Assembly (NCBI GenBank): GCA_034422875.1
Contig: DAOUJI010000066.1
Coordinates: 8,714-72,713 of the forward strand
Reading direction: 5' to 3'
From: Dehalococcoidia bacterium
GTDB taxonomy: Bacteria; Chloroflexota; Dehalococcoidia; Lucifugimonadales; JAGWBF01
Length of the DNA stretch: 64,000 bases
Below, piece after piece: positions 4,200-63,421 of the stretch (within the stretch, counting starts at the first letter, position 1; each line of letters starts with the position of its first letter). The position numbers and the translations under genes were made by a program. Under the pieces are notes generated by a model. That model had not been told where the DNA came from and ran no database searches. It saw nothing but the letters and a program-made list of their open reading frames with translations.

Positions 4200-4302
4200 G
4201 AGGAAGCCTTCAAACCTGTTTTTGGGACGTCTACGCCATGCTGACCGAACACTCTGAGCTTGCCATATTCTAGTCGGATGGCTCCCATTTGGCACGTTGG
4301 GT

Positions 4303-20462: not shown

Positions 20463-22139
20463 CTAGCTCTCTGGGTCGGAGAAATAACGCTGGATTAGTC
20501 TCAGCACATGGTCCCTGTCAATAAGACCGTCAAAGTAGTCGCTTATCGCCCTGAGGATTTCGTCTTTGTCGATTCTACCGTCTCTGTTGGCGTCGTAGTT
20601 CGTTTCAACTGCCAACGCTAATGTTTTGACCGACATCAGTGAGATTATGACGTAGGTGCGGTCCTCGTAGGTGCCACAGCGATGTTCTACAAGCTCCCAA
20701 CTTCCGTCGGCGACTGAGTACAAATTCGCACGGTCCTCGCTGCACGCTGGTTGGTCGTCCTGGGGGATGCCCAACCACAACTCCACATCCGGTGCGGTGA
20801 AGTCCATATAGGGAATGTCGCTCTCAGACGGATAGGCCTTAACGTTCACCGACCACACGACCTCGGAAGCGACGTCCGACGGCGGCGCTCCCTCAGGCAG
20901 GACATCTAATTCGGCTACTATGATCGTGGTGCCGCTGGGAAGGGAATCCTGGGGGATTACCAGGCGTTTGGCGAAATCTCTCGAGATGTAAACATGGGTC
21001 GATGCGCCGCCGGAAGACGTAGATCCAGAAAAGCCGGATGCCCCTATCGCCAGCTGCACTCGCACCTTCTGGGGAGAATTTTCGATTCCCGTGCCGGATA
21101 TCTCTACCGTACCGCGATGGTATCCCAAATCTAGATTAGACGAGTCCACACTTACGTCGATTTCCTGAATGTCGGTTGGCCCGCTGGAGAAGCCGGATAG
21201 CGGGTCGAGGGTCAGCCAATCGGCGTTGTCTGAAACATTGAAGCTCATTGGTCCTGTGCGGCTGTTCCACACTTGCAGTTTCTGTGACGGCGGTACGTCC
21301 TCGATCATGTCAACGAAGAAGGTGGCGGGTTCGAACGGAGGCACCGCGATCAGGCCCTCGGTCGCCGTCGTCGCGGATTCGAGGGTAAAGGTCAACGTCG
21401 CCATAGGCGAGTTGGAAAACTTGCCTGTGTTTCTAATGCTGCTGATAGCCTCCTGAGGGCTGGTGGGGGAATTGTTCAAGGTGAACTCAGTCCCCTCCTC
21501 CGTGCCTGCATCGTAGGGATAGAGGTTGACTACAAGCTCGTCTTTCCAGTTCCCGTCGCCGTCCAGCAGGGAGAGTCCTGAAATGCCCACGAACCAGTCC
21601 GGGCTGGGTCCAATCATGGAGAGAAGGGTCACCAGGGGATAGTCAGACGTGACTTCGATGTCGAACGTATTTGAGCCTTCCGGGCCGCTTCCGGGACTCT
21701 GCTGTATGATCGACAGTTTGTTGTTTCCGCTGGCGTTGATTTCACCCCGGAAAGTGCCCGTGGCGCCGAGCTCGGCGACGTTCTCAACCCCTGGGGTGGC
21801 CAGGCCGCCGCTGCTCCAATAGGTGACGCTGCTGTTGTGGACAGCGCCGATAAGCGTGGTGAAATGCCCGCCCGACACTACCCCACCGGGAGTGCTTTGA
21901 AGGTTCCACATTCCCTTGAACGTGACACTGTACTCAACTTCGGTCGCAGTCTGAGCCGAGACGGATTTGGAGATAGCTCCGGACGTAAGCAATAGGCACA
22001 ATAATCCGGTAAGGACCGCAAGTGTTAGAAAGAGACGCTGCCTGGCGAGAAAAGGCACGCATAAAATGGCTTGGGCGTCTCGCTGCCGCCGAGATAAGTA
22101 GGGCATAGGGTTCATAGCTGCCATCCCTGGATAACCCAT
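20463..22139 (-). CDS. secreted spondin_N-domain protein with C-terminal EF-hand/dockerin-like module
   Basis: A signal/anchor helix precedes a spondin_N-like domain (FKGMWN...GHFTTLIGAVHN...LLSMIGPSPDWFVGISGL...LYPYDAGTEEG). The C-terminus reads YDANRDGRIDKDEILRAISDYFDGLIDRDHVLRLIQRYFS. Confidence 0.7.
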   Translation of the reverse strand: MGYPGMAAMNPMPYLSRRQRDAQAILCVPFLARQRLFLTLAVLTGLLCLLLTSGAISKSVSAQTATEVEYSVTFKGMWNLQSTPGGVVSGGHFTTLIGAVHNSSVTYWSSGGLATPGVENVAELGATGTFRGEINASGNNKLSIIQQSPGSGPEGSNTFDIEVTSDYPLVTLLSMIGPSPDWFVGISGLSLLDGDGNWKDELVVNLYPYDAGTEEGTEFTLNNSPTSPQEAISSIRNTGKFSNSPMATLTFTLESATTATEGLIAVPPFEPATFFVDMIEDVPPSQKLQVWNSRTGPMSFNVSDNADWLTLDPLSGFSSGPTDIQEIDVSVDSSNLDLGYHRGTVEISGTGIENSPQKVRVQLAIGASGFSGSTSSGGASTHVYISRDFAKRLVIPQDSLPSGTTIIVAELDVLPEGAPPSDVASEVVWSVNVKAYPSESDIPYMDFTAPDVELWLGIPQDDQPACSEDRANLYSVADGSWELVEHRCGTYEDRTYVIISLMSVKTLALAVETNYDANRDGRIDKDEILRAISDYFDGLIDRDHVLRLIQRYFSDPES

Positions 22140-28310: not shown

Positions 28311-28449
28311 CGCCGCCGCCTTCCAGGGCGGCTCAACTTCCCTACCTGTGCCTCATTCGTTCCGATCACGCTGACCGTGTTTTTGTGACGAATTGTCATC
28401 TGCTATTATTGGGTGAGTTGTAATACCTGAATAATTGAAGTCATTCACT

Positions 28450-30897
28450 ATGAAAGTCGAAAGGGTTGGGATTCCAACGATTGTTGTCGCCGCAATTGCC
28501 TTTTGGGTGGCCGCTGCGGCAATTGGGATCCTCTCCATCCCGAAGGTCCTGGCGCACGATCCGTCCTCAGGCGACTGCTCCTCTGGCATCGCTGTACCCA
28601 ACGCAGCCAGCAACCCGGGGCTGGTGTCCGACTGCGAAGCGTTGCTGGCGTCCCGGGACACTTGGTCCGGTCAGGCGACTCTTAATTGGTCTCAGGACAT
28701 CCCCATGGGAGACTGGGATGGGATCGCTCTCGATGGCATGCCGCCAAGGGCGACAAAGCTGATAGGCATCGGAGCGAAGTTGACCGGCTCGATACCCGCC
28801 GAATTGGGCAGGCTTGATAAGTTGGAAGAATTGAATCTGGCAGGAAATCACCTAACAGGCCCGATTCCACCCGAACTGGGTAACCTTGCTGATTTGCAAG
28901 TGCTGGTGCTTAACTCGAACCAGTTGACTGGTGCAATTCCTGCGGAACTGGGCAACCTATCCAGCTTGAAAGTCCTCCGACTTTCCGAGAATCGGTTGGA
29001 CGGTCCTATACCCCCAGAGCTGGGTCGATTGTCGACGCTGTTATGGCTGTCTCTCACTCAGAACCAATTGAGTGGGCCTATCCCTTCAGAACTGGGCAGT
29101 TTGCCTAATCTGGTGTTTCTTTATCTCAGAGGCAATCGGCTGATCGGCCATATTCCTTCGGATCTCAGTCGGCTGACTATGCTGTACGATCTTGACCTCT
29201 CTTACAATCAACTAAACGGTTCGATACCGGAAGAGTTGGGCCTCCTGTCCAAGTTGCAATTCCTAGACCTTACCAACTCTGGATTGAGCGGCCCAATACC
29301 GAGGGAATTGGGAAACCTATCCGGTTTGGTTTGGCTCAATCTTTCTTACAACCAGTTGAGTGGAGCAGTGCCCTCGGAGTTGGCGGGTCTATCAAAGTTG
29401 ACAAGACTTTGGCTCCATGGGAATCAGTTGACCGGGCCAATACCCTCTCAGTTGGGTAACCTCTCAAACCTGGTGGAACTGACCCTAGGGGGCAACGATC
29501 TCACCGGTACGATACCCACTCAACTGGGTAGCCTCGCCAACCTGGAATCTCTGTCCCTCGACTATAACCAGCTGACCGGGCCGATACCCTCGGAGTTGGG
29601 GAACCTGACCAAATTGCAGAACCTATGGCTCAACAGCAATCAGTTGAATGAGTCGATACCCAACTCGCTAGGCAACTTAATCAACCTGAAATCGCTAGAC
29701 TTGTCGAAGAACCGGTTGAAGGAGAACGTGCCCAATGAACTAGGCATCTTGGTCAACCTGCAATCATTGAACCTGTCAAACAACCGCTTGACCGGGACTA
29801 TCCCAGTTCAGCTTGGCAGCTTATCCAGACTGGAGACGCTAAATCTCTCTGGCAACCAGTTGGATGGGACGATACCCGCAGAGCTTGGCGTGTTGTCTAA
29901 CCTGAGAGAAATCTGGATTGGTGGAAACCAGTTGACCGGATGCATACCAGCCGCTTTGAAAGCGGTGCTAGATAATGACCTCGCCACTCTCGGTCTACCG
30001 TTCTGCCACCCGTTGCAGGATGCTTGTGCCATCGAAGGGGCAGTGCCAAATGCGTACAATAATCACCAGTTGGTGGCCGACTGCTATGCTTTGCTGGAGA
30101 CACGGGATATCTTGGATGATTCCGGTTTGCTGAATTGGTCGGCGGACCTGTACATCACAGACTGGGATGGGGTCACAGTCAGTGGCACGCCGCTTCGCGT
30201 CACCGGGGTCCGGCTCGACAGCTACAAGTTAGGCGGTACTATACCGCCACAGCTATCCAGGCTGACCGATCTAAAGTTGCTGTCCCTAACTTACACCCAA
30301 ATGACCGGCCCGATTCCAACTGAATTAGGCAGTTTCTCCAACTTGAAAGAACTATACCTAGGCAGTAACCAGTTGACAGGCCCGATTCCCGCTGAGTTGA
30401 GTAGTCTCTCCAATCTCCGCCATCTCTACCTCAGCAGCAACCGTTTAGATGGGACGATACCGGCCGCACTAGGGGGCCTCGTCAAGCTTGAGGAACTGGC
30501 CCTCTCCTATAATCAATTGACCGGTTCAGTTCCTGCTGAACTGGGCAACCTAACCAGGCTGCAACGACTGAGACTGTCCCACAACCAATTGACCGGGGAC
30601 ATACCGGCCGAGTTAGGACAACTCGCAAACCTAACGGAACTGAAGCTTGCTGGGAGCCAGCTGACCGGGTGCATTCCGCAGGGATTGAGAGATGTAGCAG
30701 TCAATGACTTTGGCGGCCTCGGCCTGCCGTTCTGCATGTTGACCGAGGAAGAGTTGCTCGACCGGTATGACGGCAACGGCAACGGGACCATCGAGAGAGA
30801 CGAAGCCCTTGACGCTGTGGCAGACTACTTCGCAGACCTAATCAGCAGAGATGACGTGTTAACCATCATCTCACTCTATTTCTCGTCGTCCGGTTGA
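28450..30897 (+). CDS. secreted leucine-rich-repeat protein, plant-type 24-residue LRRs, with C-terminal EF-hand/dockerin-like module
   Basis: An N-terminal hydrophobic anchor/signal is followed by two LRR blocks of about 17 and 7 repeats of LxxLxxLxLxxNqLtGpIPxELGn. Each block is preceded by a Cys-containing cap (...DCEALLASRD...LNWS...DWDG...) and closed by ...GCIP...LPFC. The C-terminus reads YDGNGNGTIERDEALDAVADYFADLISRDDVLTIISLYFS. G+C is lower than in the neighbours. Confidence 0.85.
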   Translation: MKVERVGIPTIVVAAIAFWVAAAAIGILSIPKVLAHDPSSGDCSSGIAVPNAASNPGLVSDCEALLASRDTWSGQATLNWSQDIPMGDWDGIALDGMPPRATKLIGIGAKLTGSIPAELGRLDKLEELNLAGNHLTGPIPPELGNLADLQVLVLNSNQLTGAIPAELGNLSSLKVLRLSENRLDGPIPPELGRLSTLLWLSLTQNQLSGPIPSELGSLPNLVFLYLRGNRLIGHIPSDLSRLTMLYDLDLSYNQLNGSIPEELGLLSKLQFLDLTNSGLSGPIPRELGNLSGLVWLNLSYNQLSGAVPSELAGLSKLTRLWLHGNQLTGPIPSQLGNLSNLVELTLGGNDLTGTIPTQLGSLANLESLSLDYNQLTGPIPSELGNLTKLQNLWLNSNQLNESIPNSLGNLINLKSLDLSKNRLKENVPNELGILVNLQSLNLSNNRLTGTIPVQLGSLSRLETLNLSGNQLDGTIPAELGVLSNLREIWIGGNQLTGCIPAALKAVLDNDLATLGLPFCHPLQDACAIEGAVPNAYNNHQLVADCYALLETRDILDDSGLLNWSADLYITDWDGVTVSGTPLRVTGVRLDSYKLGGTIPPQLSRLTDLKLLSLTYTQMTGPIPTELGSFSNLKELYLGSNQLTGPIPAELSSLSNLRHLYLSSNRLDGTIPAALGGLVKLEELALSYNQLTGSVPAELGNLTRLQRLRLSHNQLTGDIPAELGQLANLTELKLAGSQLTGCIPQGLRDVAVNDFGGLGLPFCMLTEEELLDRYDGNGNGTIERDEALDAVADYFADLISRDDVLTIISLYFSSSG

Positions 30898-36517: not shown

Positions 36518-36877
36518 ATGTCATCTACGAACGATCCCGTTCGACTACCAGAGTTCACCAACGACCTTGGAAGGCTGTCCAGAAAGCTCCGCTCTATCGA
36601 CCGCGACCTGGAAGCGTTCATTCGATTGCTCCAGGCAGGCCTCAAATCAAGCATACATGCAACCCGGGTTCCTGGGTTCGGTGAACTAAACGTATGGAAA
36701 GGCCGCGCAATTAGTCGAGACATGCGGAGTGGAAAATCCGGAGGGTTCAGAATCTGGTGGCTAGAAACCTCATCGGACACCGTAGCGCTGCTCTACATAT
36801 ACACTCATCGCAGCAACGAGAACGAGAATCGTATCAGGGAAGAAGTTAGAAGGCGTCTTTCAACCAATGGATATTAG
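36518..36877 (+). CDS. RelE/ParE-superfamily toxin (HigB/Gp49-like)
   Basis: 119 aa. ...LPEFTNDLGRLSRKLRS... and the core ...GKSGGFRIWWLETSSDTVALLYIYTHRS... resemble RelE/ParE-type mRNA interferase toxins. No same-strand antitoxin ORF is adjacent. Confidence 0.6.
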   Translation: MSSTNDPVRLPEFTNDLGRLSRKLRSIDRDLEAFIRLLQAGLKSSIHATRVPGFGELNVWKGRAISRDMRSGKSGGFRIWWLETSSDTVALLYIYTHRSNENENRIREEVRRRLSTNGY

Positions 36878-37396
36878 AGGAGACGTTTCCTCGTCTTCGC
36901 TATCGGGCATGGACTCAAACTTTCGCCTATAGTAGGCATACTCATACGGTATCGTTTCGCCCTCGGCAGTCGCTATCCAAGGGGCTTCCCCGTGACTTGC
37001 TGCTACTAGTTCGGCGGCCGTCTGATTTTCCCACTTTTTCGCGATGTCGAACATGAGCTTCAACTCAGTGGGCCTGAAGATGTCCAGCGGCGGCTCGACA
37101 CCTGGTATGACCGAATACCGGTATTGGGTGTACGGCCCCGACTGTTCCTTGATTTCTTGTACCAACCCAGACATCCTGCGCAATTCCTTTTGCATCTGCT
37201 TGGGATACGGTCCCCGTGGCATGTGGACGTAGTCGGCGCCAGTGACCGCCACTCCATGTTGCTCGAAATGATCGAAGTCCAGGAAGTAGAGAAGCTTTGC
37301 CAATTTGGTTCGACCCAAAGTGCCGTTGCGCACGGTATCACAGAAGAACAGAAGCGCGGCCTGCATCTTTTTGGAACTATAGTGTGTCCTAGCCAT
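36860..37396 (-). CDS. Panacea (DUF4065, SocA-like) domain antitoxin-type protein
   Basis: ...GRTKLAKLLYFLDFDHFEQHGVAVTGADYVHMPRGPYP... is the characteristic N-terminal region of the DUF4065/Panacea domain. Its 3' end overlaps the convergent toxin-like gene by 18 nt. Confidence 0.65.
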   Translation of the reverse strand: MARTHYSSKKMQAALLFFCDTVRNGTLGRTKLAKLLYFLDFDHFEQHGVAVTGADYVHMPRGPYPKQMQKELRRMSGLVQEIKEQSGPYTQYRYSVIPGVEPPLDIFRPTELKLMFDIAKKWENQTAAELVAASHGEAPWIATAEGETIPYEYAYYRRKFESMPDSEDEETSPLISIG

Positions 37397-37536: not shown

Positions 37537-39030
37537 CTATAACCCTCGCAGCTCCAGGGTCTCCACATGGCCGGTTTCCAGGCTGGCGACCCGGACGGCG
37601 TGGTTGTTTGTGTCCGCGACGTAGAGCTTTCCTCCAGCCGCGCTGATTCCTGACGGTTCGTGGAAGCGGGCTTCGAACGCCGAACCGTCTTTATAGCCGT
37701 GCTCGCCGCTGCCAAGGAACGTGAGCACGCTCCTCGTGCCCGGGTAGACCCGCTTTATCTTGTTGTTGTAGGTGTCGGCGATATACAGGACTCCGTCATG
37801 CCAGTCCACCCCCTGGACGTGCTGGAGACGCACCTGTTCTCCCACTCCGTCCACGTCGCCCCACACGAACAGGTCCTCGCCCACGATAGTCCCCACACGC
37901 CCCGACGGGTTCAGGTCGGCGTACCTGACGGCACTGGCCTCGCTGTCAGCGAAATAGAGGCGTTCCCCGTCTGACGTGATGCCAGTGGGCTGGTCCAGAG
38001 AAGCCGACATCAGGGGACCGTCTATGGGGGCCTCCCGGCCGTTGCCGGCGTATACGTTGACCTGGCCCGACGCCAGGTGGAGCGCCCAGAGTTGGTGGTT
38101 GCCCGCCATAGCGATGTGCACGACGCCGTTGTGGACCGCCACGTCCCAGGGTGAACTCAGGGCTGTCCGCAGGGCAGGACCGCCTTCGGAATGGCCCCGC
38201 GCCTGCTCTCCCGTCCCGGCTACGGTCTCAACTGTTCCGGCCTCCAGGTCGACTGTCCGAATGGCGTGGTTCTCAGTGTCAGCTACATAGAGAGAGTTCC
38301 CGTCTTCCGACAGGGCCATTCCCTGGGGATGATCGAACTCGGCCGAATCATAATCCCCGTCGGCATGTCCCGGCTGGCCGCTTCCTATGACGTGCGTCAC
38401 CTGTCCATCCAAGTCGGCCACGACAATGCGGTTGTTGTTGGAGTCGGCTACAAACAGGCGTCCGGAAGCCTCGTCAGCCAATATCTTGCCTGGGAAGGAG
38501 AGTCCCGGCGCCTCTGGCGCTTCCCGTTGGAAGTCGAGCCGCTTCGTGCGGTCCAGCATCCCCTTCTCGTCGAACTCTTCCACCATTCGCCCAAGCAAGC
38601 CGTCGAACTGCTCGAAGCTGAACTCCCCCTCGTGCTTGCCGATGACCTTGCCCTGGGGGTCCACAAACATCAGAGTGGGCCAGGCGCGGCAGCCGTACTC
38701 CCTCCAGATGCTGAAGTCCCCGTCATTGACCACGGGGTGTTCCAGCTCGAACCTGAGCACCGCTTTCCTCAGGTTGTCCGTGTCCCGCTCAGAGGTGAAC
38801 TTGGCAGAGTGGACTCCGATCACCACAAGCTCTGCCGCGTACTTGTGCTCCAGTTTCCGCAACTGCGGAAATATGTGCATGCAGTTCACTCAACAGGAGG
38901 TCCAGAACTCCAGGATGACTATTTTCCCTACCAGCTCCTTCATGCTGATGGGCCTGCCAGTGTTGAGCCAGTCCTTACCTGACGGGAACTCGGGAGCGTT
39001 GACGTTGCCGAGGAAAGAGCGTGTGGCCAC
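37537..39030 (-). CDS. thioredoxin-like + NHL-repeat (NHLRC2-like) protein with in-frame TGA, probable selenoprotein
   Basis: Track ORF 37537-38889 begins one codon after an in-frame TGA (38892-38890). Reading through gives [66 protein letters not shown]... from GTG 39030, which has a GAAAGGGGG SD. The TGA sits at the first Cys position of the CxxC motif. The C-terminal part carries NHL beta-propeller repeats (...[12 protein letters not shown]...). Confidence 0.75.
38854..38871 (-). promoter_or_regulatory. candidate bacterial SECIS hairpin
   Basis: The minus strand has a perfect 7-bp stem, TTTCCGC-AGTT-GCGGAAA, starting 18 nt after the TGA codon. The apical loop contains GU. Confidence 0.5.
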
Positions 39031-39103
39031 TTTGGACCCCCTTTCAGTAAGCGCCCGCCCATTATACACCTGCGCCCCTGCGCACGGTCACAGGCTAAAA
39101 TGC

Positions 39104-40632: not shown

Positions 40633-42561
<1,929 letters not shown>

Positions 42562-42609
42562 GCCCTGACTTCAACCCTCCCTCTGAGGAGACCGTTGCAC
42601 AACTGGTAG

Positions 42610-42640
42610 GGGCGACCCTTGTGGTCGCCCTTATTTGTTG
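42610..42640 (+). terminator. intrinsic terminator of gyrB
   Basis: GGGCGACC-CTTGT-GGTCGCCC (42610-42630) followed by TTATTTGTTG. Confidence 0.7.
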
Positions 42641-42655
42641 TCCATCGGGGAAACA

Positions 42656-42676
42656 GGGCAACCACCAGGGTTGCCC
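42656..42676 (-). terminator. hairpin downstream of pyrE (weak terminator / REP-like)
   Basis: GGGCAACC-ACCAG-GGTTGCCC palindrome. On the minus strand it is followed only by TGTTTCC. Confidence 0.4.
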
Positions 42677-42767
42677 CTACGAACGTAACGCACCGTAAGA
42701 GGAGATTCGGGCCGACTGAGTCTCGTAGAATTCCGGTTACTCAAAGGTCTCCCTCGGTGAGAGGGGG

Positions 42768-43331
42768 CTAGACTGCCGGCTGCACCTGGCCATCGGGCGT
42801 CGCTTCCAGAAGGGTCCAGAAAGGATAACCCCGGCGGCGTATTTCGTCGCTCCCGCCTTCCCGCCGGTCCAATATGGCGGCCACCATCACCACCGTGCAG
42901 CCAGCCGCCTCCGCAGCCTCTATAGCGTGCAGCAGGGAACCGCCCGACGTGCAGGTGTCGTCCACCACCGCAACCTTGCATCCTTCCATCGGCAGCGGCC
43001 CCTCGATAGCCCTACCTGCGCCGTGGCCTTTAGCCTCTTTCCTGACAATGAAAGCCGGTATAGGGGTTCCATCCAAGTGGCTGGTCAACGCTATGGCAGT
43101 CGCCATGGGGTCGGCGCCCAGCGTTGGGCCGCCCACGGCCTCGGCGCCGGCGTTTCTGACAACGGGCAGGAAGGTGCGCCCAATAAGAAAGGCGCCCTCG
43201 GGGTCCAGGGTCAACAGTCGCCCGTCGAAGTAGTATGGGCTGACCTTCCCTGACGACAGTGTAAATTCACCGTAGGTCAAAGCCCCGAGGCGTTCGGCCA
43301 ACTCAAGCAGCCGGTGGGCATCGGATGTCAT
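42768..43331 (-). CDS. pyrE: orotate phosphoribosyltransferase
   Basis: ...GALTYGEFTLSSGKVSPYYFDGRLL... and the PRPP motif VAVVDDTCTSGGSL. Confidence 0.9.
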   Translation of the reverse strand: MTSDAHRLLELAERLGALTYGEFTLSSGKVSPYYFDGRLLTLDPEGAFLIGRTFLPVVRNAGAEAVGGPTLGADPMATAIALTSHLDGTPIPAFIVRKEAKGHGAGRAIEGPLPMEGCKVAVVDDTCTSGGSLLHAIEAAEAAGCTVVMVAAILDRREGGSDEIRRRGYPFWTLLEATPDGQVQPAV

Positions 43332-43957
43332 GGGCGCCCCTCCGCGACACTCAAGTCCCCAGCCCGTTGACTGGACCCGTATAGACCATGTCGATGGATA
43401 TACGCCTCTACAGCCTCCGGGACCCGATCCCCCACCGGAAGTCCCTTGGAGACCCTTTCCCTCACCTCCGTGGCGCTGATGGCCGTCAGCGGGGCTTCCA
43501 GGTAGATAACGCGGGTGGATTCATCAGGCCTGCTTGCAGCGTTGGGCACATCATATCCCGGCCTTGGCACGGCTACGATGGTGCACAACTCCCGAATCCG
43601 CTCAGGTTCCTTCCAGCGGTCCATATGCACCGCTGAGTCTGCGCCCACGATTAAGAACAGCTCACGCGTTGGGTCCTCTCGATTCAACTCCTCCAGAGTG
43701 TCGACGGTGTAGGTCAGGCCTTCCCGTTCGACCTCCATGGGAGACACGGAGAAGCGGGGATTCGAGGAGACAGCCAGGGCTGCCATGTCCATACGGTGGT
43801 GCGCGGCGGACACTTCCTCCCCTTCTTTCATCCAGGGCCTTCCGGCGGGCACGAACCACACCTCATCCAGATGGCACGTTTCCAACGCCTCTTCCGCCGC
43901 CAGAAGATGCCCTATATGGATGGGGTCGAAGGTCCCGCCCATCAGTCCCAACCGCAT
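43328..43957 (-). CDS. nadD: nicotinate-nucleotide adenylyltransferase
   Basis: MRLGLMGGTFDPIHIGHL N-terminus. It overlaps the pyrE start by 4 nt. Confidence 0.9.
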   Translation of the reverse strand: MRLGLMGGTFDPIHIGHLLAAEEALETCHLDEVWFVPAGRPWMKEGEEVSAAHHRMDMAALAVSSNPRFSVSPMEVEREGLTYTVDTLEELNREDPTRELFLIVGADSAVHMDRWKEPERIRELCTIVAVPRPGYDVPNAASRPDESTRVIYLEAPLTAISATEVRERVSKGLPVGDRVPEAVEAYIHRHGLYGSSQRAGDLSVAEGRP

Positions 43958-43988
43958 GCTTTCACCAAACCCAGGGCTTCTGAGTCTT

Positions 43989-45269
43989 CTAGAGCCATTC
44001 CAGCTCGGCCCTGCCGATGTGGACCGGATCTCCCGGCTTGACGCCCATGCCTTCCAAGGCGTCAGCGACCCCCAGGTCCCGCAACTGCTTCCAAAGCTGC
44101 ACCATCACCCGCCAGTCGCGCAGGTCGGCCATGGGGAGCATGCGCTCCACCCTAGGGGCGGATACGTGGTAGGCTCCTCCACGCCGAGTGATGGTGAACG
44201 GGGGCGGTTCGTCGGGCTCCCTAGAAACCACCGGACTGATTCGCGGTCCGCTCTTGGGGAGTGCGCCCAGAGTTTCCACGACCTTTAGCATCAGCCCGTT
44301 GACGCCCTCTCCCGTGACGGCTGAGACCAGATGCACAGAGCCCGTGGCAGGCCCGCCTTTGCTCGCTGCGCTCAGCGTCTCGTCGAGGACGTCTGCCAGC
44401 TCTTGGACATCGGGAATATCCGCCTTGTTGACCACGACAATCTGAGGCTTCGACCCCAGGTCCTCATCGAACTCCCTCAGCTCGCGATTAATCTGTTTCA
44501 TGTCTCCCGCAGGATCGTCGGCGCTGCCGTCCACCAGATGGATCAAGAGCTTGGCCCTCTCGGCGTGCCTCAGGAAGTCATGCCCCAGCCCTAGTCCCTC
44601 GTGTGCGCCCTGTATCAGTCCTGGGACCTCCATCATCACGAAAGGTTCATAGCCAACGCCTAGATCAACCACTCCCAGAGCCGGCTCCGTCGTGGTGAAC
44701 GGGTACGGCGCAACCTTGGGAGTCGCCCGCGAGCAGACGGACATAAGCGTGGACTTTCCCGCGTTGGGCTTGCCCACTATTCCCACGTCGGCCAGCAGCT
44801 TGAGTTCCAACAGAAGTTGGGCCCACTCTCCGTCCATTCCCTTCTCAGCCAGAAGAGGCTCCTGTTGAGTCGGGGTGGCAAACCGAGCGTTGCCCGAGCC
44901 TCCTCGACCCCCACGAGCGACGAGAAGCTCTTCATCCCCTTCAGACACCTCACCAATGGCGACTCTCTCCCCATCCCCCATCTTCCAAATCACGGTGCCG
45001 ATTGGAGCCCTTACCTTCACATCTTCCCCATTAGCCCCTCGTCTGTTCTGTCCTCTGCCATGGACTCCGCGGGAACCCTTCCATCGAGAGTTGTACCTCA
45101 AGTGAAGCAAAGTGTTTATCGAGTCGTCCCCAACGATATAAACACTCCCGCCATGACCCCCGTCACCCCCGTCAGGACCTCCCCTGGGAACAAACTTCTC
45201 CCTACGGAAACTCACGCAGCCGTTGCCGCCGGATCCCCCAATTACGGTTATTTTAGCTAAATCAATCAT
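43989..45269 (-). CDS. obg: GTPase Obg/CgtA
   Basis: Glycine-rich Obg fold (GGSGGNGCVSFRREKFVPRGGPDGGDGGHGGSVY), G1 motif GKPNAGKST and a C-terminal OCT-like domain. Confidence 0.93.
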   Translation of the reverse strand: MIDLAKITVIGGSGGNGCVSFRREKFVPRGGPDGGDGGHGGSVYIVGDDSINTLLHLRYNSRWKGSRGVHGRGQNRRGANGEDVKVRAPIGTVIWKMGDGERVAIGEVSEGDEELLVARGGRGGSGNARFATPTQQEPLLAEKGMDGEWAQLLLELKLLADVGIVGKPNAGKSTLMSVCSRATPKVAPYPFTTTEPALGVVDLGVGYEPFVMMEVPGLIQGAHEGLGLGHDFLRHAERAKLLIHLVDGSADDPAGDMKQINRELREFDEDLGSKPQIVVVNKADIPDVQELADVLDETLSAASKGGPATGSVHLVSAVTGEGVNGLMLKVVETLGALPKSGPRISPVVSREPDEPPPFTITRRGGAYHVSAPRVERMLPMADLRDWRVMVQLWKQLRDLGVADALEGMGVKPGDPVHIGRAELEWL

Positions 45270-45485
45270 TCTGGTTTCATGAGATGTCTAACAGTAGTGA
45301 TAAGGGAGTGGGATATGTTGACAAACGAATGTGTTAGCTTTGGAACTACTGTTGAATAGATGTGTGGAGACGTTGAAAACCATATACAAAGACCAAGACT
45401 ATTGTACATGTTCCGACGGCTCGGAAGGAATGGATAGGAGGCGGGTTGGAGTTTGGGTGGCTAATGAGGCGAGATAATGGAAGGT

Positions 45486-46844
45486 TCAGTTGGTGATCGG
45501 CGCTAAGAGGGCCTCTTTGATCGCTATGACATGGTTCTTTACCGAGGGGTCGGTGTCAAGGGAACGAGTGACTTTGGACAATGCGCTTATGACTGTGGAG
45601 TGGTTCCGGCCCCCCATGAGCCGCCCGATGTCGGTGTCGCTCATGGATAGCTCTTCGTGCATCAAATACATGGCAATCCGCCGAGGTTCTGTGACGCTTC
45701 GCTTGCGGCTGGCTCCCACCAGGTCATCCCGCCCCACCGAGAACCTAAGGCATACCTGCTCCAGGATAGTTTCCGGCCCCACCGCCGCTTGGCTGAAGCT
45801 GGGCAGCAAGTCTGCGATGGCCTGGGCGACCAGGTCCATGGTGATGGGCGAGTCATATACGTTGGCCATCGCTACGATGCGGTTGAGGCATCCCTCCAAC
45901 TCTCTTATGTTGCGGTAGGGGTAATTAGCAGCGTGGTGGATAACGGCATCCTCCAATGAAACGGACATATGTCCTGCCTTGGTGCGCAGGATGGCCGCAC
46001 GGGTTTCCATGTCGGGTGCGGATATGTCTGTCATGAGGCCCCACTCAAAGCGTGAGCGGAGCCGGTCTTCCAAGTCGGAGAATTCCCTCGGTGGACGGTC
46101 CGACGCCAGCACCACCTGCCCGGAGGAATTATGCAGGTCGTTGAAGGTATGGAAGAAGGCCTCCTGGGTCTGCTCCTTCCCGGCAAGGAACTGCACGTCG
46201 TCTACTAGCAGCACGTCGACGCTCCGGTACTTGGCGCGGAAGTCCTCGGTGGTCCTGGAGCGTATGGCGGTGATGAACTCGCTGGTGAACTGCTCTGCGG
46301 TCACATAGAGGATGCGGTCTCCCCGCTCAATGGACGTGTGGCCGATGGCCTGCAGAAGGTGAGTCTTGCCCAACCCTGCGGGAGAGTGTATGAACAGGGG
46401 CTGGTACGCGTTCTCCGGCGTCTCCGCGACCGCCTTTGCGGCCGAGTAGGGGAGTCTGTTGGAGGGGCCCACGACGAACCTTGGGAAGGTGTAATGGCGA
46501 TGCAGCCCCGACCAAGACGACTGGCCCTGGCGTCGACTGTTGGCCGCGCCGGAGGGCGTCGGGTCCAGAGGGGACCGGGCGGTGTCCAGGACCGGGGTGG
46601 ACCTGAATTCCACGTCCAGGGCGCCGTCCACGACCCGTTGGACAGTCTCACGGATGGTGGGGTACATTCGACGTTCGAGCCATTCTATGGAGAAGGGAGT
46701 GTTCACTCCTACAAGCAAAACGCCCCGGTCGATGGAGAGGCCGCGTGTGTCCTTGAGCCATGTGTCGAACACATGCCTGTCCACGCGAACTTGCAGCTCG
46801 CCGAGCGCGGCTTTCCATCCATTTATTGCTCTGATGTCGGTCAT
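45486..46844 (-). CDS. dnaA: chromosomal replication initiator protein DnaA
   Basis: The start is moved to ATG 46844 (MTDIRAINGWKAALGELQ...FDTWLK). AAA+ Walker A is SPAGLGKTHLLQAIGH, and a C-terminal DNA-binding domain follows (...RRIAMYLMHEELSMSDTDIGRLMGGRNHSTV...). Confidence 0.93.
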   Translation of the reverse strand: MTDIRAINGWKAALGELQVRVDRHVFDTWLKDTRGLSIDRGVLLVGVNTPFSIEWLERRMYPTIRETVQRVVDGALDVEFRSTPVLDTARSPLDPTPSGAANSRRQGQSSWSGLHRHYTFPRFVVGPSNRLPYSAAKAVAETPENAYQPLFIHSPAGLGKTHLLQAIGHTSIERGDRILYVTAEQFTSEFITAIRSRTTEDFRAKYRSVDVLLVDDVQFLAGKEQTQEAFFHTFNDLHNSSGQVVLASDRPPREFSDLEDRLRSRFEWGLMTDISAPDMETRAAILRTKAGHMSVSLEDAVIHHAANYPYRNIRELEGCLNRIVAMANVYDSPITMDLVAQAIADLLPSFSQAAVGPETILEQVCLRFSVGRDDLVGASRKRSVTEPRRIAMYLMHEELSMSDTDIGRLMGGRNHSTVISALSKVTRSLDTDPSVKNHVIAIKEALLAPITN

Positions 46845-47086
46845 AAGAGAGGCCGGGGGCGTTATGTAAATCAGGATAAGGGCGTTAAACAAAGGGTTGT
46901 CAAGGCAGTAATCACGGAAAAGTTGGGCCACGCCAAAATTGGCGTCGAACATAGTATAATTCTGAGATAGAATATAATTATAGTTTAGCACATATAAGCT
47001 GATTCGGCGGTTTCCGTAACCCTGGCTCCCTGGATATAATCAAACGTGGCATATCGCCCATTCGGAGCCCGTTCTGGAATTCGACA
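46845..47086. other. A/T-rich dnaA-fmt intergenic region, candidate oriC/DUE and divergent promoters
   Basis: A strongly A/T-rich stretch at 46950-47000 (ATAGTATAATTCTGAGATAGAATATAATTATAGTTTAGCACATATAAGC). TATAAT hexamers occur at 46955-46960 and 47034-47039. Only degenerate DnaA-box-like 9-mers are present (TCAGGATAA at 46871-46879, 2 mismatches). Confidence 0.3.
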
Positions 47087-52064: not shown

Positions 52065-52205
52065 TAGAACTCGATCCAGGCAGTTGCGGTCTTAACCTAT
52101 GTGCGAGACGTTAAAACGCTGCTGACTTGACATCGAGGCGGCGCTGCCAAGATATGCCCGAAAATTGGCAGGTCTTAACGCGTTGGAGAAGGGGTGGATC
52201 GGGAA

Positions 52206-55049
52206 ATGCTGCGAATGACAAGAATTCCTATTTTCTTCCGCGTCACTTTGGTGTTGGTTCTTCCGGCAGTTCTCCTTGCCTGCGAAATCGGAACGCAGCC
52301 CACAGAGAATGGCGCCTTGACACCGACAGTCGAGGAACCGGTTGGGGCGGCAACGGAAGAAGGGTTGCCCACGGCAACCGGATTGCCGGGAGATGCGACG
52401 GCAACACCGGCCTCGCGGTCGATGTCTGGACCGTCGGCTTCGACAGCGGCGAAGAGGCTGACCCCGGAGGAGAAAGAACAATGGGCCCTGGATTCCCTTG
52501 ATGTCATCCAAAGAGCCGACCCTTCCCTGGCCCAAGCTCTCTCTGGATTGCCTTGGCTCTCCGACGGCTTCACCGGGGATGAGGCTCGGGCGCTCGACGT
52601 CATACGGCACTTTGCTGAGACAGACCTGAAAACAGCAAACTCCGTCGTGAACGTGCTTCAATTGTCAGGTGCAGTTGAGGAGATTCACGCGGATGCCCTG
52701 GGATCATTGGATTACATCCTCCGAAAGGACCGCGTACGAGGCGAGAGCCTCGTCAACCAATCGTGGTTTCAGGATGGGTTGACAGACCAAGAGACCGCGC
52801 TGATCGTTGTCCTTCGGGATGTCGTTGAGGAGAACCAAGAAGTTTTCGACGACTTGATTCAGGGAGGTCGCGTACGTTCCGAAACCCTGTCTCTGTCCTC
52901 TGGGGATGTGGACCTGTTCCTCATCCGCCGGCCTTCCCTGGAATATGTCGACGAGAGTGTTTTCGATGATCTGGGCGCCGCCGTCAAGGCTATCGAAGAG
53001 TTCATGGGTCCTCCATGGGTCAAGAGCGATGTCATTCTGCTTGTGGAACTTGACATCGATCTCTTCTCACCTGAAGGGGGGAGCAACTATGGCACACACA
53101 TGTCAATCGTGGTTCCGGAACCTGGAGCCCCGGCGCCCCGACAAGCCATCTACCACGAGCCAGCCCACTACTACTTCAGGCTCGACATTTTCCCCGAGTG
53201 GCTGGCTGAGGGAGCATCGGACTTTCTTTTCTACTCCGTTGTAGGTAGAAACCTCCAGGCGCTATATGCCAGCGTGCAAAAAGATGTCGCGTTTTACTGC
53301 GAATGGGTCACGCCAAACCAGGACGTGAACACGGTTCAAGAGTTGCTCGATTACGTGCCGCCGGCAATATCTCTCGGGGTCGAATTCGGGGTCGGGTTCG
53401 AAGTGTGCCCCTATCGGATGGGGTCGTCTTTCCTGCTGGCAATGGACAATGCCCTGGGACGCGAGGTCGTCTCGTCTTCGTTACGGGAATTGTATAGGTT
53501 GGGCGAAGCAAAAGGCTCGCCGGTGACCGAGGACGAGATTTACCAGGCATTCCTGGACAATACTCCTGCGGCGAAGCAGAGCGAATTCCGCGACCTGTAC
53601 TATTTTCATCATGGTGGGCCAGCATCCGACCATATCCCTGTCGGGCCTCCTCCATCCGGTTCGGTCCACTACGGCAGGCCCATCCCTGGATATGAGCCTA
53701 CCGGTCCGGCTGCCCTCGCTTCGGACAGGGAGGCTCTGGCCGCCATTTACAACGCCGCAGGCGGCCCCAACTGGAATAACTCCGAAAACTGGCTGAGCGA
53801 CGCTCCTCTCTACCAATGGCATGGCGCCACATCCCAATACTGGGACGAGAACACTGCGGATGAGGACGTGGTCCCCGCGGGCGACTACCGTGTTTACGGG
53901 CTTCAACTTCACGGCAACGGGTTGAGCGGTCCGGTGCCACCTGAACTGGGCTTACTCTGGTGGCTGGAGGAGTTGTATCTCAGCGACAACCGGTTAACCG
54001 GACCTATACCGCCGGAACTAGGCAACCTGCACACCCTCAGCCGGTTGAGCATGTCAGGGAATCAGTTGAGCGGACCGATACCGCCGGAGTTGGGCAATCT
54101 GGGCTTGACCGAGTTGGGGTTGTCGTTCAACCGGTTAAGCGGCGAGATTCCGCCGGAACTGGGCAGGTTGCGAGGCCTGCGGGTGTTGGCGCTCTCCGAT
54201 AATGAGCTAACCGGTCCGATTCCTCCGGAGCTGGGCGCTCTTGGCAATCTGAGATTTCTGGACCTCTCGCGCAACCGGTTGAGCGGGGATATACCCCCGG
54301 AACTGGGGAATCTCACTAACCTGCAAAACTTGCGCCTCTCCGGGAACCGCTTGACCGGCTGCATACCCGCCTCTCTGCGGAGCCAATTGAGCCCGGCTTC
54401 TATCCTGGGAGACCTGCCGTTCTGTGGGACTGCACCCTCGGTGACCTCCGATGGGGCGGACCGGGCAGCGCTGGTTGCCCTTTACAACGCCACTAATGGC
54501 CCCAACTGGGCAAACAACGACAACTGGCTGACTGACGCGCCCTTGAGCGAGTGGCACGGCGTCACCACTGACGACGATGGCCGTGTAGTAGACCTGACTC
54601 TCTCGGAAAACCGCTTAAGCGGAGAGATGCCCCGGGAGCTGGGCAACCTCGACAAGCTGCGTAAGCTGTGGCTCCCACGGAACCGGTTGACCGGGGAGAT
54701 ACCGCGGGAGCTTGGCAAACTGTCCGGCCTGCTCTTCCTGGAGCTCTCAAGCAACCAGTTAAACGGAGAGATACCTCCGGAGTTGGGCAACCTGACCAGA
54801 CTGAACGTTCTAAGCTTGAGCATAAACAACCTGAGTGGGGAGATCCCCCCGGAACTGGGCGGAATCTCTAACCTGAGACAGCTTCAGCTCAACCGGAATG
54901 AGTTGAGCGGCGAGTTGCCGTCGGAGCTGGGTGGCCTCACCAAACTGAAATGGCTGGTGATCAGTGACAACCAGTTGACCGGGTGCATACCTCGCTCTCT
55001 GGAGAACAGTTTGGAACTCATTGACACTGACCGTCTGCAATTCTGCTGA
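52206..55049 (+). CDS. lipoprotein with gluzincin-like (HExxH...E) peptidase-like domain and two plant-type LRR blocks
   Basis: Lipobox ...PAVLLAC. AIYHEPAHYYFRLDIFPEWLAEGASDF resembles the HExxH-(18)-E / WLxEG arrangement of M1/MA-clan peptidases. Two N-cap motifs follow (DREALAAIYNAAGGPNWNNSENWLSDAPLYQWHG and DRAALVALYNATNGPNWANNDNWLTDAPLSEWHGV), each leading 6-7 LRRs of LxxLxxLxLxxNrLsGeIPpELGn that end in GCIP. Confidence 0.8.
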   Translation: MLRMTRIPIFFRVTLVLVLPAVLLACEIGTQPTENGALTPTVEEPVGAATEEGLPTATGLPGDATATPASRSMSGPSASTAAKRLTPEEKEQWALDSLDVIQRADPSLAQALSGLPWLSDGFTGDEARALDVIRHFAETDLKTANSVVNVLQLSGAVEEIHADALGSLDYILRKDRVRGESLVNQSWFQDGLTDQETALIVVLRDVVEENQEVFDDLIQGGRVRSETLSLSSGDVDLFLIRRPSLEYVDESVFDDLGAAVKAIEEFMGPPWVKSDVILLVELDIDLFSPEGGSNYGTHMSIVVPEPGAPAPRQAIYHEPAHYYFRLDIFPEWLAEGASDFLFYSVVGRNLQALYASVQKDVAFYCEWVTPNQDVNTVQELLDYVPPAISLGVEFGVGFEVCPYRMGSSFLLAMDNALGREVVSSSLRELYRLGEAKGSPVTEDEIYQAFLDNTPAAKQSEFRDLYYFHHGGPASDHIPVGPPPSGSVHYGRPIPGYEPTGPAALASDREALAAIYNAAGGPNWNNSENWLSDAPLYQWHGATSQYWDENTADEDVVPAGDYRVYGLQLHGNGLSGPVPPELGLLWWLEELYLSDNRLTGPIPPELGNLHTLSRLSMSGNQLSGPIPPELGNLGLTELGLSFNRLSGEIPPELGRLRGLRVLALSDNELTGPIPPELGALGNLRFLDLSRNRLSGDIPPELGNLTNLQNLRLSGNRLTGCIPASLRSQLSPASILGDLPFCGTAPSVTSDGADRAALVALYNATNGPNWANNDNWLTDAPLSEWHGVTTDDDGRVVDLTLSENRLSGEMPRELGNLDKLRKLWLPRNRLTGEIPRELGKLSGLLFLELSSNQLNGEIPPELGNLTRLNVLSLSINNLSGEIPPELGGISNLRQLQLNRNELSGELPSELGGLTKLKWLVISDNQLTGCIPRSLENSLELIDTDRLQFC

Positions 55050-56039: not shown

Positions 56040-56275
56040 ATAACCGGCCGGGGAGCGATTCGGGCTTTGCCGGGGCGCACAGAATCTCATCCTGACGAGG
56101 TGTGAAGGACGGCAAAGTCCGAATTCCCTGCCACGCCACACGTGCTGGAAGGGATGCCCCGACGGTCTCGGAGACTCCCGCGCACTGGCAACTCTTACAG
56201 GGGGTCCGTAGCCCTGCTCCTCGTGGTCCATGCTATGACTCTTTGTGAGCGCTGAACCAAATGAGGGAGGACGAC

Positions 56276-62588: not shown

Positions 62589-62630
62589 GACTCCTCCTTG
62601 AAATTTCTGGTCATTGTTCTTCCTTGGCGC

Positions 62631-63332: not shown

Positions 63333-63381
63333 GCAGGGCGCCTCCCTTCCGATTTGGTTTTCGCTCTTCCGGGGCCAGGGC

Positions 63382-63421
63382 ACAAAAAGAGGGACAGACC
63401 CAACTCAGGGTCTGTCCCTCT
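63382..63421 (-). terminator. strong intrinsic terminator (minus strand) immediately upstream of the prohead protease gene
   Basis: A perfect 14-bp stem, AGAGGGACAGACCC (63388-63401) with GGGTCTGTCCCTCT (63408-63421) and a 6-nt loop. On the minus strand it is followed by TTTTTGTG. Confidence 0.7.

Follow-up and report, generated by a model that had tools for sequence, protein, structure and literature searches.

A probable selenoprotein of the NHLRC2/SOQ1 family encoded with an in-frame TGA in Dehalococcoidia

NHLRC2 has been connected with FINCA disease in humans, and SOQ1 with photoprotective qH in plants. Both proteins carry a CC(I/V)NC motif (PMC6107167; bioRxiv 10.1101/2024.11.01.621559), and in SOQ1 the cysteine pair C431-C434 is redox-active and required for function (bioRxiv 10.1101/2024.11.01.621559). 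The C-terminal domain of SOQ1 contributes a second redox pair and a reported methionine sulfoxide reductase activity; redox activity of the thioredoxin-like (Trx-like) pair or methionine sulfoxide reductase activity has been reported for SOQ1 only (bioRxiv 10.1101/2024.11.01.621559). In insulin-reduction assays no activity of NHLRC2 or SOQ1 was observed (PMC6107167; bioRxiv 10.1101/2024.11.01.621559). A bacterial group without the beta-stranded domain at the C-terminus was described by Biterova et al. (PMC6107167).

Here, a stretch of 64,000 nucleotides from a Dehalococcoidia bacterium (contig DAOUJI010000066.1, hereafter the window) was analyzed. Positions 37537-39030 of its minus strand, on which all features of the gene described below as well as selB are located, form a single gene that very probably encodes a cytoplasmic selenoprotein of 497 residues belonging to the NHLRC2/SOQ1 family, composed of a Trx-like domain and an NHL propeller, in which UGA is read as selenocysteine (Sec) via a SECIS element and SelB. 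The lumenal region of SOQ1 (7DJJ) and NHLRC2 (6GC1) show the same domain order, the same motif position and the same AWPT cis-proline motif, whereas the Dehalococcoidia protein is predicted to carry Sec in place of the second motif cysteine (SOQ1 C431) and has no C-terminal beta-stranded domain. In contrast to SOQ1 it also has neither a HAD domain nor a membrane anchor, and it is a bacterial, predicted cytoplasmic protein.

Two further groups of proteins are informative for comparison. The closest thioredoxin-like structure without an NHL propeller is the C-terminal Trx-like domain of M. tuberculosis DipZ (2HYX), which aligns to residues 12-146 (E 5e-19) and harbors the similar xCINC motif SCINC; DipZ differs in being a membrane-linked reductant transporter domain and in lacking both the propeller and Sec. 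The catalogued UxxC selenoproteins with a thioredoxin fold (PF00578/PF08534) have in common with the present gene a UxxC at the N-terminus of helix alpha1, cysteine-containing homologues and a SECIS element located downstream within the coding sequence. Unlike in these, the best model for the present domain is PF13905, which is not in the catalogue, and the domain is fused to an NHL propeller of ~320 residues.

Gene boundaries and protein domains

The complete coding sequence (37537-39030) consists of 497 codons followed by a TAG stop, starts with GTG and contains one in-frame TGA (38890-38892), which was predicted to encode Sec at residue 47 (U47). The preliminary description of this locus had placed the TGA at exactly this position and had noted that the listed open reading frame (37537-38889) starts with a GTG one codon past it; both statements hold. 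Upstream of the TGA the frame stays open for 46 codons back to the GTG at 39028-39030, as had been proposed together with a good Shine-Dalgarno sequence, and the GGGGG that can be read at 39037-39041, 6 nt upstream of this GTG, probably serves as such. Homologues begin with M/V-A-T-R-S-F at the same position, the start codon being GTG in the loci L001-L003 and ATG in further loci, among them L004 and L005. A second possible start in this frame, a GTG at 39069, is situated upstream of the conserved block and coincides in part with a TATAAT hexamer (39061-39066). This hexamer is recorded as sequence only, and a promoter scan found no sigma-70-type promoter upstream of the gene. Among relatives, no conserved functional partner was found in the operon context, and the gene order gyrB-(MFS)-gene-aminotransferase is present in close relatives only.

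When the TGA is read through, the resulting protein aligns over its full length with solved structures, namely SOQ1 (7DJJ; residues 11-496, E 1.3e-128) and NHLRC2 (6GC1; residues 10-492, E 2.5e-110), and 80 genome loci identified by tblastn cover residues 1-497. The earlier label NHLRC2-like was right, with Arabidopsis SOQ1 as the closest solved structure, and the gene is an orthologue of both SOQ1 and NHLRC2. The Trx-like domain (Trx8/TlpA-type; residues ~11-150; 38581-39000) is interrupted by the TGA, and three Pfam models span it: Thioredoxin_8 (PF13905; residues 35-129, 53 bits), AhpC-TSA (PF00578; residues 23-129, 40.5 bits against a cut-off of 26) and Redoxin (PF08534; residues 15-140, 34.3 bits against a cut-off of 26.6). 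The matches to the structures of DipZ and ResA likewise cover residues 12-146. On the read-through protein no NCBIfam model reaches its cut-off. Within the domain, A116, W117, P118 and T119 show no variation in alignment A1, and Pro118 (38677-38679) in this A-W-P-T motif is presumed to be the active-site cis-proline of the thioredoxin fold, by analogy with Pro-163 of NHLRC2 (PMC6107167).

The NHL-repeat beta-propeller follows at residues ~177-496 (37543-38502; Pfam NHL, PF01436, 102 bits, and TEN_NHL), and residues 176-496 align with the propeller structures of NHLRC2 (6G7W) and SOQ1 (7DJM). Residue 497, the last of the protein, directly follows the propeller, and a beta-stranded domain at the C-terminus with its second cysteine pair is absent. 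Such a domain is not family-defining, but its absence matters for the transfer of the SOQ1 mechanism to this protein.

Position and conservation of the in-frame TGA

The TGA lies in the family motif CC(I/V)NC, which here reads C46-U47-V48-N49-C50 (38881-38895), and aligns with the second cysteine of CCINC. This corresponds to SOQ1 C431, the N-terminal cysteine of the redox pair C431-C434. The preliminary description had assigned the TGA to the first position of a CxxC motif (U-V-N-C) and had given the motif of cysteine-containing members; cysteine is indeed aligned there in 36 homologues, and full-length proteins of the Cys form read DFWTYCCINCMH at this point. While U47 replaces the second cysteine, the remaining motif positions are retained; in metagenome sequences the first cysteine can be G, A or T.

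Across 81 orthologous loci, the codon at this position is TGA in 45, TGC in 23 and TGT in 13. Apart from the window, the TGA form occurs in 44 further Chloroflexota species genomes (GTDB), mostly Dehalococcoidia, and the 36 relatives with TGC or TGT belong to other lineages. In a neighbor-joining tree the TGA forms are monophyletic, so that a single change between U and C is needed. Metagenome contigs, at least 120 in number, also yielded the TGA form; the search pattern used to gather them kept the core of the hairpin described below constant and left only its outer pairs free to vary. Of 120 contigs, 119 have an open frame to either side of the TGA. The TGA is thus shared by at least 120 contigs and by 44 species genomes that were assembled independently, several of which are closed chromosomes; OZ240207.1, OZ240206.1 and OZ244792.1 are examples of closed genomes with the TGA form. 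Since independent assemblies agree, it is scarcely conceivable that TGC or TGT was misread as TGA in the window through faulty sequencing or assembly, even though only a single base separates TGA from a cysteine codon.

The TGA might instead be a real stop within a split or decaying gene, from which a 46-residue peptide would be made, followed by an N-terminally shortened NHL protein of 447-450 residues starting at a downstream GTG or ATG. In the rest of the window TGA serves as a regular stop, and all public gene calls found for the TGA clade start with MH(V/I)FPQL and are 438-450 aa long; such truncated calls are, however, what stop-codon-based gene finders are expected to give. An exact-sequence lookup of the 447-aa truncated product of the window gave no record. 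A stop at this site would cut through the thioredoxin fold, separating beta1 from the CxxC helix. The preliminary description had argued that the 46 upstream codons supply the missing start of this fold, and had named a lack of conservation upstream of the TGA as an outcome that would speak against it. These codons show conservation at the protein level, and both the SOQ1 and the NHLRC2 structure can be aligned from residue 10-11 onwards. The 35 codons preceding the TGA evolve in this frame with the periodicity of coding sequence: mean entropy at codon positions 1, 2 and 3 was 0.56, 0.27 and 1.28, respectively, and no stops were found in 44 loci. No variation was seen in the TGA itself among the 45 loci and at least 120 contigs, whereas third positions next to it vary. 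As judged from the aligned sequences, the conservation of the TGA, the upstream frame and the hairpin goes far beyond chance, and together with the TGA-linked hairpin, which appears to be selected at the nucleotide level, this makes a genuine stop very unlikely.

Within the window, holA and dnaA end in ordinary TGA stops, demonstrating that the code is not reassigned. A listing of all in-frame TGAs flanked to either side by open frame gave 163 candidates in this GC-rich window, of which none apart from the present gene showed a redox motif.

A conserved hairpin downstream of the TGA

In E. coli fdhF and in Moorella, a looped-out G and U of the SECIS hairpin contact SelB, and in fdhF these loop bases are G23 and U24. 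In the present gene, a perfect 7-bp hairpin, UUUCCGC/AGUU/GCGGAAA (38854-38871; apical tetraloop AGUU at 38861-38864), begins 18 nt after the UGA, precisely where the preliminary description had located it, and its loop G and U are found at nt 30 and 31 from the U of UGA, ~7 nt beyond their counterparts in fdhF. For bacterial SECIS (bSECIS) elements an apical loop of 3-9 nt, an upper stem of 4-16 bp and a G in the first two loop positions have been defined (PMC13188914, Fig. 2 legend), along with a distance of 16-37 nt from UGA to loop and a minimum free energy (MFE) of at most -7.5 kcal/mol (PMC13188914). The hairpin agrees with this model in full: the loop has 4 nt, with G as its second base and U as the next, the stem has 7 bp, the distance from UGA to loop is 25 nt, and the MFE is -8.8 (18 nt) and -9.3 kcal/mol (30 nt). 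In common with the bSECISearch consensus, it is a stem-loop within the open reading frame just 3' of the UGA with a small apical loop of G then U, whereas here the core CCGC-AGUU-GCGG is very short and nearly invariant in sequence and a conserved lower stem is lacking. An extended lower stem present in the MFE fold of the window was considered and rejected as not conserved, since no more than 61% of cells are paired among the orthologues and covariation is absent. A permissive Rfam scan of 38750-38950 gave no match to a curated SECIS family.

The stability of the 63-nt region after the UGA is unremarkable when compared to shuffled sequences (z = -1.38). As thermodynamic stability alone is not significant, the case for a SECIS element rests on comparative evidence. 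The hairpin was detected in 45/45 TGA loci and in 0/36 Cys loci, with a mean MFE of the 32-nt region of -9.6 kcal/mol in TGA loci versus -3.7 kcal/mol in Cys loci, and no chance match (0 expected) to the 16-nt hairpin core is to be anticipated in the window. A single departure in the loop was seen in the orthologue L009, which has AUUU and therefore no loop G. Among 75 four- or six-fold degenerate codon columns in which the amino acid is conserved, zero codon entropy was found only at CCG, TTG and CGG of the hairpin; the next lowest value was 0.76 and the median 1.58. In the Cys forms no degenerate codon column has zero entropy.

The preliminary description had suggested a search for UGA-containing orthologues with covarying stems. 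Such orthologues exist in the 44 species genomes from GTDB as well as in at least 120 contigs, and the pairs 22-39 and 24-37 covary. In 150 distinct TGA sequences, pair 22-39 is CG in 76, UA in 57, UG in 14 and CA in 3, and pair 24-37 is UA in 102, CG in 31, UG in 9 and CA in 8. The observed pairing at both positions was reached by 0/2000 shuffles; Fisher p-values for this covariation ignore phylogeny, and separate clades, at least 9-10 of them, have the C-G state at the covarying pairs. Further inside the stem, four G-C pairs never vary and hence yield no covariation signal. When the covarying pairs change, the encoded amino acids change with them, Phe...Lys becoming Leu...Glu. These patterns in the aligned sequences indicate that the hairpin is under nucleotide-level selection, compensatory changes included.

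Selenocysteine machinery and meaning for the family

The presence of selB in the window, already pointed out in the preliminary description, was verified. It is located at 2334-4295, 34.6 kb from the gene, and would be its trans-acting partner. The gene is complete, flanked by hemW and ychF, scores 357 bits with TIGR00475 (cut-off 242) and encodes the Pfam domains GTP_EFTU, Beta-barrel_SelB, SelB-wing_2 and SelB-wing_3. Within the 64-kb window neither selA nor selD was found, ARAGORN detected no tRNA-Sec, and an Rfam scan of the whole window at gathering thresholds returned only two tRNAs and no match to a tRNA-Sec family.

The absence of selA, selD and tRNA-Sec from the window is compatible with a recoding of UGA to a residue other than Sec, either Cys inserted via SelB and the SECIS element or Trp or Cys inserted by near-cognate decoding, which would result in a full-length protein without selenium. 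The variant in which Cys is delivered by SelB would need the hairpin and SelB as well, and the evidence for these two does not discriminate. Nevertheless, we consider recoding without selenium improbable: SelB of the window passes the equivalog cut-off set for the factor specific to Sec, the site corresponds to the classical UxxC position in selenoproteins with a thioredoxin fold, and at least one genome with the TGA form (UBA1141, locus L028, contig DCAE01000079.1, about 17.3-24.8 kb) belongs to a Dehalococcoidia bacterium that BSepDB counts among the Sec-pathway organisms, with 49 selenoprotein genes. It would also be hard to explain why a costly UGA and SECIS element should be kept across so deep a radiation merely for Cys, for which TGC suffices. 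The proposal of a probable selenoprotein missed by ORF calling is strongly supported by the Sec/Cys pairing, the conservation of the SECIS hairpin and selB.

For a selenoprotein, the following mechanism is proposed. The UGA at 38890-38892 would not be read as a stop during translation, as SelB would bind the SECIS hairpin within the coding sequence through its winged-helix domains and would bring Sec-tRNA(Sec) to the ribosome for insertion of Sec at position 47. Sec47 would stand in for the N-terminal nucleophilic cysteine of the CC(I/V)NC redox motif and most likely attack an oxidised substrate in the cleft that the propeller forms with the Trx-like domain, candidates being a protein disulfide, a sulfenate or a methionine sulfoxide. 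This attack would give rise to a selenenylsulfide with Cys50, to be re-reduced later by a reductant.

A 2026 review of 119 prokaryotic selenoprotein families contains no entry for NHL, NHLRC2, SOQ1, a propeller or PF13905, and literature searches on NHL repeats, NHLRC2 or Dehalococcoidia in connection with selenoproteins or selenocysteine turned up no account of it. The generic thioredoxin-fold entries (PF00578/PF08534 UxxC) might already include an NHLRC2/SOQ1-like selenoprotein, since a match to PF00578 and PF08534 with UxxC might have led the tblastn procedure of BSepDB to file the gene under a generic family. The chances seem about even that the TGA forms are the first recognised Sec-containing clade of the NHLRC2/SOQ1 family, deep, widespread in Chloroflexota and truncated in all public calls checked. 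Truncation was found in every public call inspected (> 60 protein clusters, closed Dehalococcoidia chromosomes included), and consequently selenoproteome counts and domain annotations are wrong at this locus for a major lineage of soil, groundwater and ocean.

The locus also offers a clear case of a minimal SECIS element in bacteria, with a 7-bp stem and an AGUU loop, whose constraints extend into the amino acid sequence: located within the open reading frame it shapes the protein, as Phe...Lys and Leu...Glu are swapped together while the RNA base pairs are kept. A Sec/Cys pair is an accepted sign that a redox cysteine is catalytic. If the present reading is true, the natural Sec/Cys pair at the second cysteine of CC(I/V)NC would mark the catalytic redox nucleophile and the Sec forms would offer an enzyme without the C-terminal domain for probing NHLRC2/SOQ1 chemistry. 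The pair at CC(I/V)NC supports the view that NHLRC2/SOQ1 proteins are true redox enzymes.

The reading frame across the TGA and its orthologues

The ORF list holds a 450-codon ORF (37537-38889, minus strand) whose GTG start lies right behind a TGA (38892-38890). Upstream of the TGA this frame runs on without a stop for 46 codons, back to a GTG at 39030-39028 (minus strand), and a GGGGG run (39041-39037, minus strand) is found 6 nt before it. Homologues begin M/V-A-T-R-S-F at the same position, supporting GTG 39030-39028 as the predicted start. The preliminary description had placed the TGA, the upstream frame, a hairpin at 38871-38854 and an ORF start one codon past the TGA, and all of these positions were recovered on re-reading of the sequence. 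A perfect TATAAT (39066-39061) is located 30 nt upstream of the GTG start, within the 73-nt gap behind a co-directional MFS transporter gene, and overlaps an alternative in-frame GTG at 39069. No sigma-70 site was called upstream of the gene by the promoter scan, since no -35 hexamer matches.

The read-through product was subjected to profile searches with Cys in place of the stop. The Pfam domains Thioredoxin_8 (residues 35-129), AhpC-TSA (23-129) and Redoxin (15-140) all span the TGA residue 47, and NHL repeats are found C-terminal to the thioredoxin-type domain. Among sequences of solved structures, the lumenal region of Arabidopsis SOQ1 (7DJJ) aligned end to end with residues 11-496 (E 1.3e-128) and human NHLRC2 (6GC1) with residues 10-492 (E 2.5e-110). 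These alignments cross the TGA, which bears out the proposal that the gene is NHLRC2-like and that the upstream codons complete its thioredoxin fold; 37537-39030 thus reads as one gene and not two. None of the NCBIfam models attained its own cut-off on this protein.

In a search of 5.8 billion proteins, all close matches had 65-92% identity and a length of 438-469 aa, mainly 444-447 aa. They made up over 60 clusters and derived in part from closed chromosomes of 2-4 Mb, and the inspected ones began with MH(V/I)FPQL, just past the TGA position (7/7). Acidobacteria, Latescibacteria and other groups supplied full-length matches at about 60% identity, and those inspected read DFWTYCCINCMH at the motif, as the preliminary description gives for Cys-containing members. 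Full-length or Sec annotation was absent from public records in the inspected clusters. Public gene calls for the TGA clade (proteins P0001-P0079 and the clusters) are all N-terminally truncated (438-450 aa), including those from closed chromosomes at NCBI and ENA, and a fragment from JGI bears the name 'DNA-binding beta-propeller fold protein YncE'.

A scan in which each GTDB species was represented by one genome gave 80 loci, 81 with the window added. Codon 47 is TGA in 45 of the 81 loci (window included) and a Cys codon in 36 (TGC 23, TGT 13). The two kinds of homologue anticipated in the preliminary description, with Cys aligned to the TGA and with UGA itself, were thus both detected, the latter also in at least 120 metagenome contigs. 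TGA forms originate from Dehalococcoidia, SAR202, Limnocylindria and unclassified Chloroflexota, Cys forms from Anaerolineae, Brocadiales, Acidobacteriota, Methylomirabilota and others. In an NJ tree the TGA forms constitute one clade and their distribution is explained by a single U/C change; both hold with metagenome sequences added.

Over the 35 codons before the TGA, entropy was 0.56 at the first codon position, 0.27 at the second and 1.28 at the third, and no stop was present in any of 44 loci, demonstrating purifying selection on the protein read in this frame. Conservation upstream of the TGA, whose absence would have spoken against a selenoprotein, is therefore of the coding type, and both a TGA arising from sequencing error and a pseudogene are excluded by this selection across the 44 loci.

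In a large TGA subclade the first Cys of the motif is replaced by Gly, rarely by Ala or Thr, so the vicinal Cys before Sec is dispensable. G-U-I-N-C occurs in 42 of 164 sequences (metagenome loci L081-L200, e.g. DFWTYGUINCIHVLPQLRE), and the hairpin of the Gly subclade is CUCCCGC-AGUU-GCGGGAG. Anaerolineae Cys forms also lack the first Cys (GCINC).

A predicted SECIS element behind the TGA

The perfect 7-bp hairpin described previously (TTTCCGC-AGTT-GCGGAAA, 38871-38854, minus strand) begins 18 nt past the TGA. It agrees with the published bSECIS model (PMC13188914) in each feature: the stem has 7 bp and the loop 4 nt, the second loop base is a G with a U behind it, the loop lies 25 nt past the UGA, and the MFE is -8.8 to -9.3 kcal/mol. 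The core CCGC-AGTT-GCGG is common to the TGA loci (n=45), with a loop reading AUUU in one Dehalococcoidia orthologue (L009:3130-3190), where CAT His replaces CAG Gln; this locus is without the loop G demanded by the model, yet has kept the TGA and an intact gene. No conserved structure was detected at this site in Cys forms, and the mean MFE of the 32-nt region was -9.6 kcal/mol in TGA forms versus -3.7 in Cys forms. Stability of the hairpin region relative to shuffles was unremarkable (z = -1.38). A longer lower stem in the window's MFE fold was not conserved.

Synonymous constraint was analyzed in 75 codon columns of the TGA genes with a conserved amino acid of 4- or 6-fold degeneracy. Exactly three had zero codon entropy, namely the hairpin's CCG (Pro), TTG (Leu) and CGG (Arg); among the others the next lowest value was 0.76 and the median 1.58. 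Cys genes contained no zero-entropy column.

The four inner stem pairs showed no variation, and the three outer ones were nearly always paired across the 45 genomes; in three sequences both bases of the outermost pair have changed, from U-A to C-G. A metagenome scan for the TGA plus hairpin, with the core fixed, yielded at least 120 contigs; 119 of the 120 listed have a frame open on both sides and the motif FWTx(C/G)U(I/V)NC. In 150 distinct sequences, which include these core-fixed metagenome sequences, pair 22-39 was paired in 98% (C-G 76, U-A 57, U-G 14, C-A 3) and pair 24-37 in 95% (U-A 102, C-G 31, U-G 9, C-A 8). This pairing was reached in 0 of 2000 column shuffles, and the C-G state occurs in at least 9-10 separate tree clades, so that the covarying stems sought in UGA orthologues are present. 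Compensation in the stem carries over into the protein, with UUU(Phe)...AAA(Lys) in some sequences and CUC(Leu)...GAG(Glu) in others; residues at the hairpin ends therefore covary because of RNA pairing, and RNA structure shapes the protein sequence, which explains FPQLRK in TGA forms versus (I/L)P(D/E)LK(K/R) in Cys forms. Leu(CUU)...Lys(AAG) is the third main end combination beside these two (38854-38871 and orthologues). On sequence grounds, hairpin 38871-38854 is a predicted SECIS element.

Selenocysteine machinery and gene neighborhood

The selB gene reported earlier for the window was found at 2334-4295 (minus strand; TIGR00475, 357 bits, cut-off 242), and its product comprises the beta-barrel and both SECIS-binding winged-helix domains. 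No tRNA-Sec, selA or selD was detected within the 64-kb window. Since holA and dnaA end at TGA, with profiles matched to the last residues, TGA acts as a regular stop in this genome, TGA 38892-38890 being the one site predicted to be recoded. BSepDB, which admits a species only if it has two or more Sec-pathway genes, credits Dehalococcoidia bacterium UBA1141 with 49 selenoprotein genes; the UBA1141 genome carries this TGA form (L028), which lends indirect support to Sec decoding.

The gene has no conserved operon partner, in agreement with a report on bacterial NHLRC2 homologues (PMC6107167), and the synteny gyrB-(MFS)-gene-aminotransferase is confined to close relatives. Between the gene and the aminotransferase lie a SocA_Panacea antitoxin-domain gene (36860-37396, minus strand) and, overlapping it tail to tail, an unannotated 119-aa ORF (36518-36877, plus strand). 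Neither gave a tblastn match in the 80 genome loci, where the flanking genes match, and the pair (36518-37396) looks like a window-specific toxin-antitoxin-type insertion. The genes gyrB (40633-42561, plus strand), pyrE, nadD, obg and dnaA (45486-46991, minus strand) are clustered at 40633-46991. A local minimum of cumulative GC skew, shallow and in a profile that is not clean, falls at about 40-48 kb, so the chromosomal origin may be near. Repeat-protein genes of a type more typical of eukaryotes are unusually concentrated (28435-30897, 52194-55049, 55146-56039, 56261-57553 and 20463-22139); their products are a pair of large leucine-rich-repeat proteins of 820 and 951 aa, another pair with RCC1 repeats and one Spondin_N/BACON protein. 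At the window edge, adjoining HK97-type Phage_capsid (61254-62588, minus strand) and prohead protease S78 (62631-63383, minus strand) genes represent a prophage or head-module remnant (61254-63383).

Predicted function and relation to known selenoproteins

The family motif CC(I/V)NC stands at the N-terminal end of helix alpha1 and looks onto the Trx-like/propeller cleft (PMC6107167); in the read-through product it is C-U-V-N-C. In SOQ1 the redox pair C431-C434 (Em -274 mV) is needed for function and hands electrons to the C-terminal domain, and the lumenal region as a whole has methionine-sulfoxide reductase activity (bioRxiv 10.1101/2024.11.01.621559). The predicted Sec47 takes the place of C431, the nucleophilic, N-terminal residue of this pair, and the AWPT motif with the cis-proline does not vary; the protein is therefore probably an oxidoreductase of the selenol/thiol type. 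The propeller cleft would bind an oxidised substrate for attack by Sec47, with Cys50 as the resolving residue. Whereas SOQ1 and NHLRC2 carry a C-terminal domain, this protein ends directly behind the propeller, and the SOQ1 relay is therefore not transferable as it stands. As the read-through product has no N-terminal hydrophobic segment, it is presumably cytoplasmic.

No kind of bacterial selenoprotein is commoner than UxxC proteins of the thioredoxin fold whose SECIS lies inside the ORF, and thus the mechanism is not new. A 2026 review of 119 prokaryotic selenoprotein families mentions neither NHL, NHLRC2, SOQ1 and propeller nor PF13905, and the literature searched on NHL-repeat, NHLRC2 or Dehalococcoidia selenoproteins contains no description of this one. 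PF00578 and PF08534 match the Trx domain too, so the tblastn procedure of BSepDB may have swept such genes into a generic family, e.g. 'Prx-like thiol:disulfide oxidoreductase' or 'Redoxin'. Taken together, 37537-39030 is very probably a real selenoprotein gene, new, or at least unnamed, among UxxC thioredoxin-fold selenoproteins, and of additional interest since the NHLRC2/SOQ1 family, whose active site is disputed, would thereby have a natural Sec at that site.
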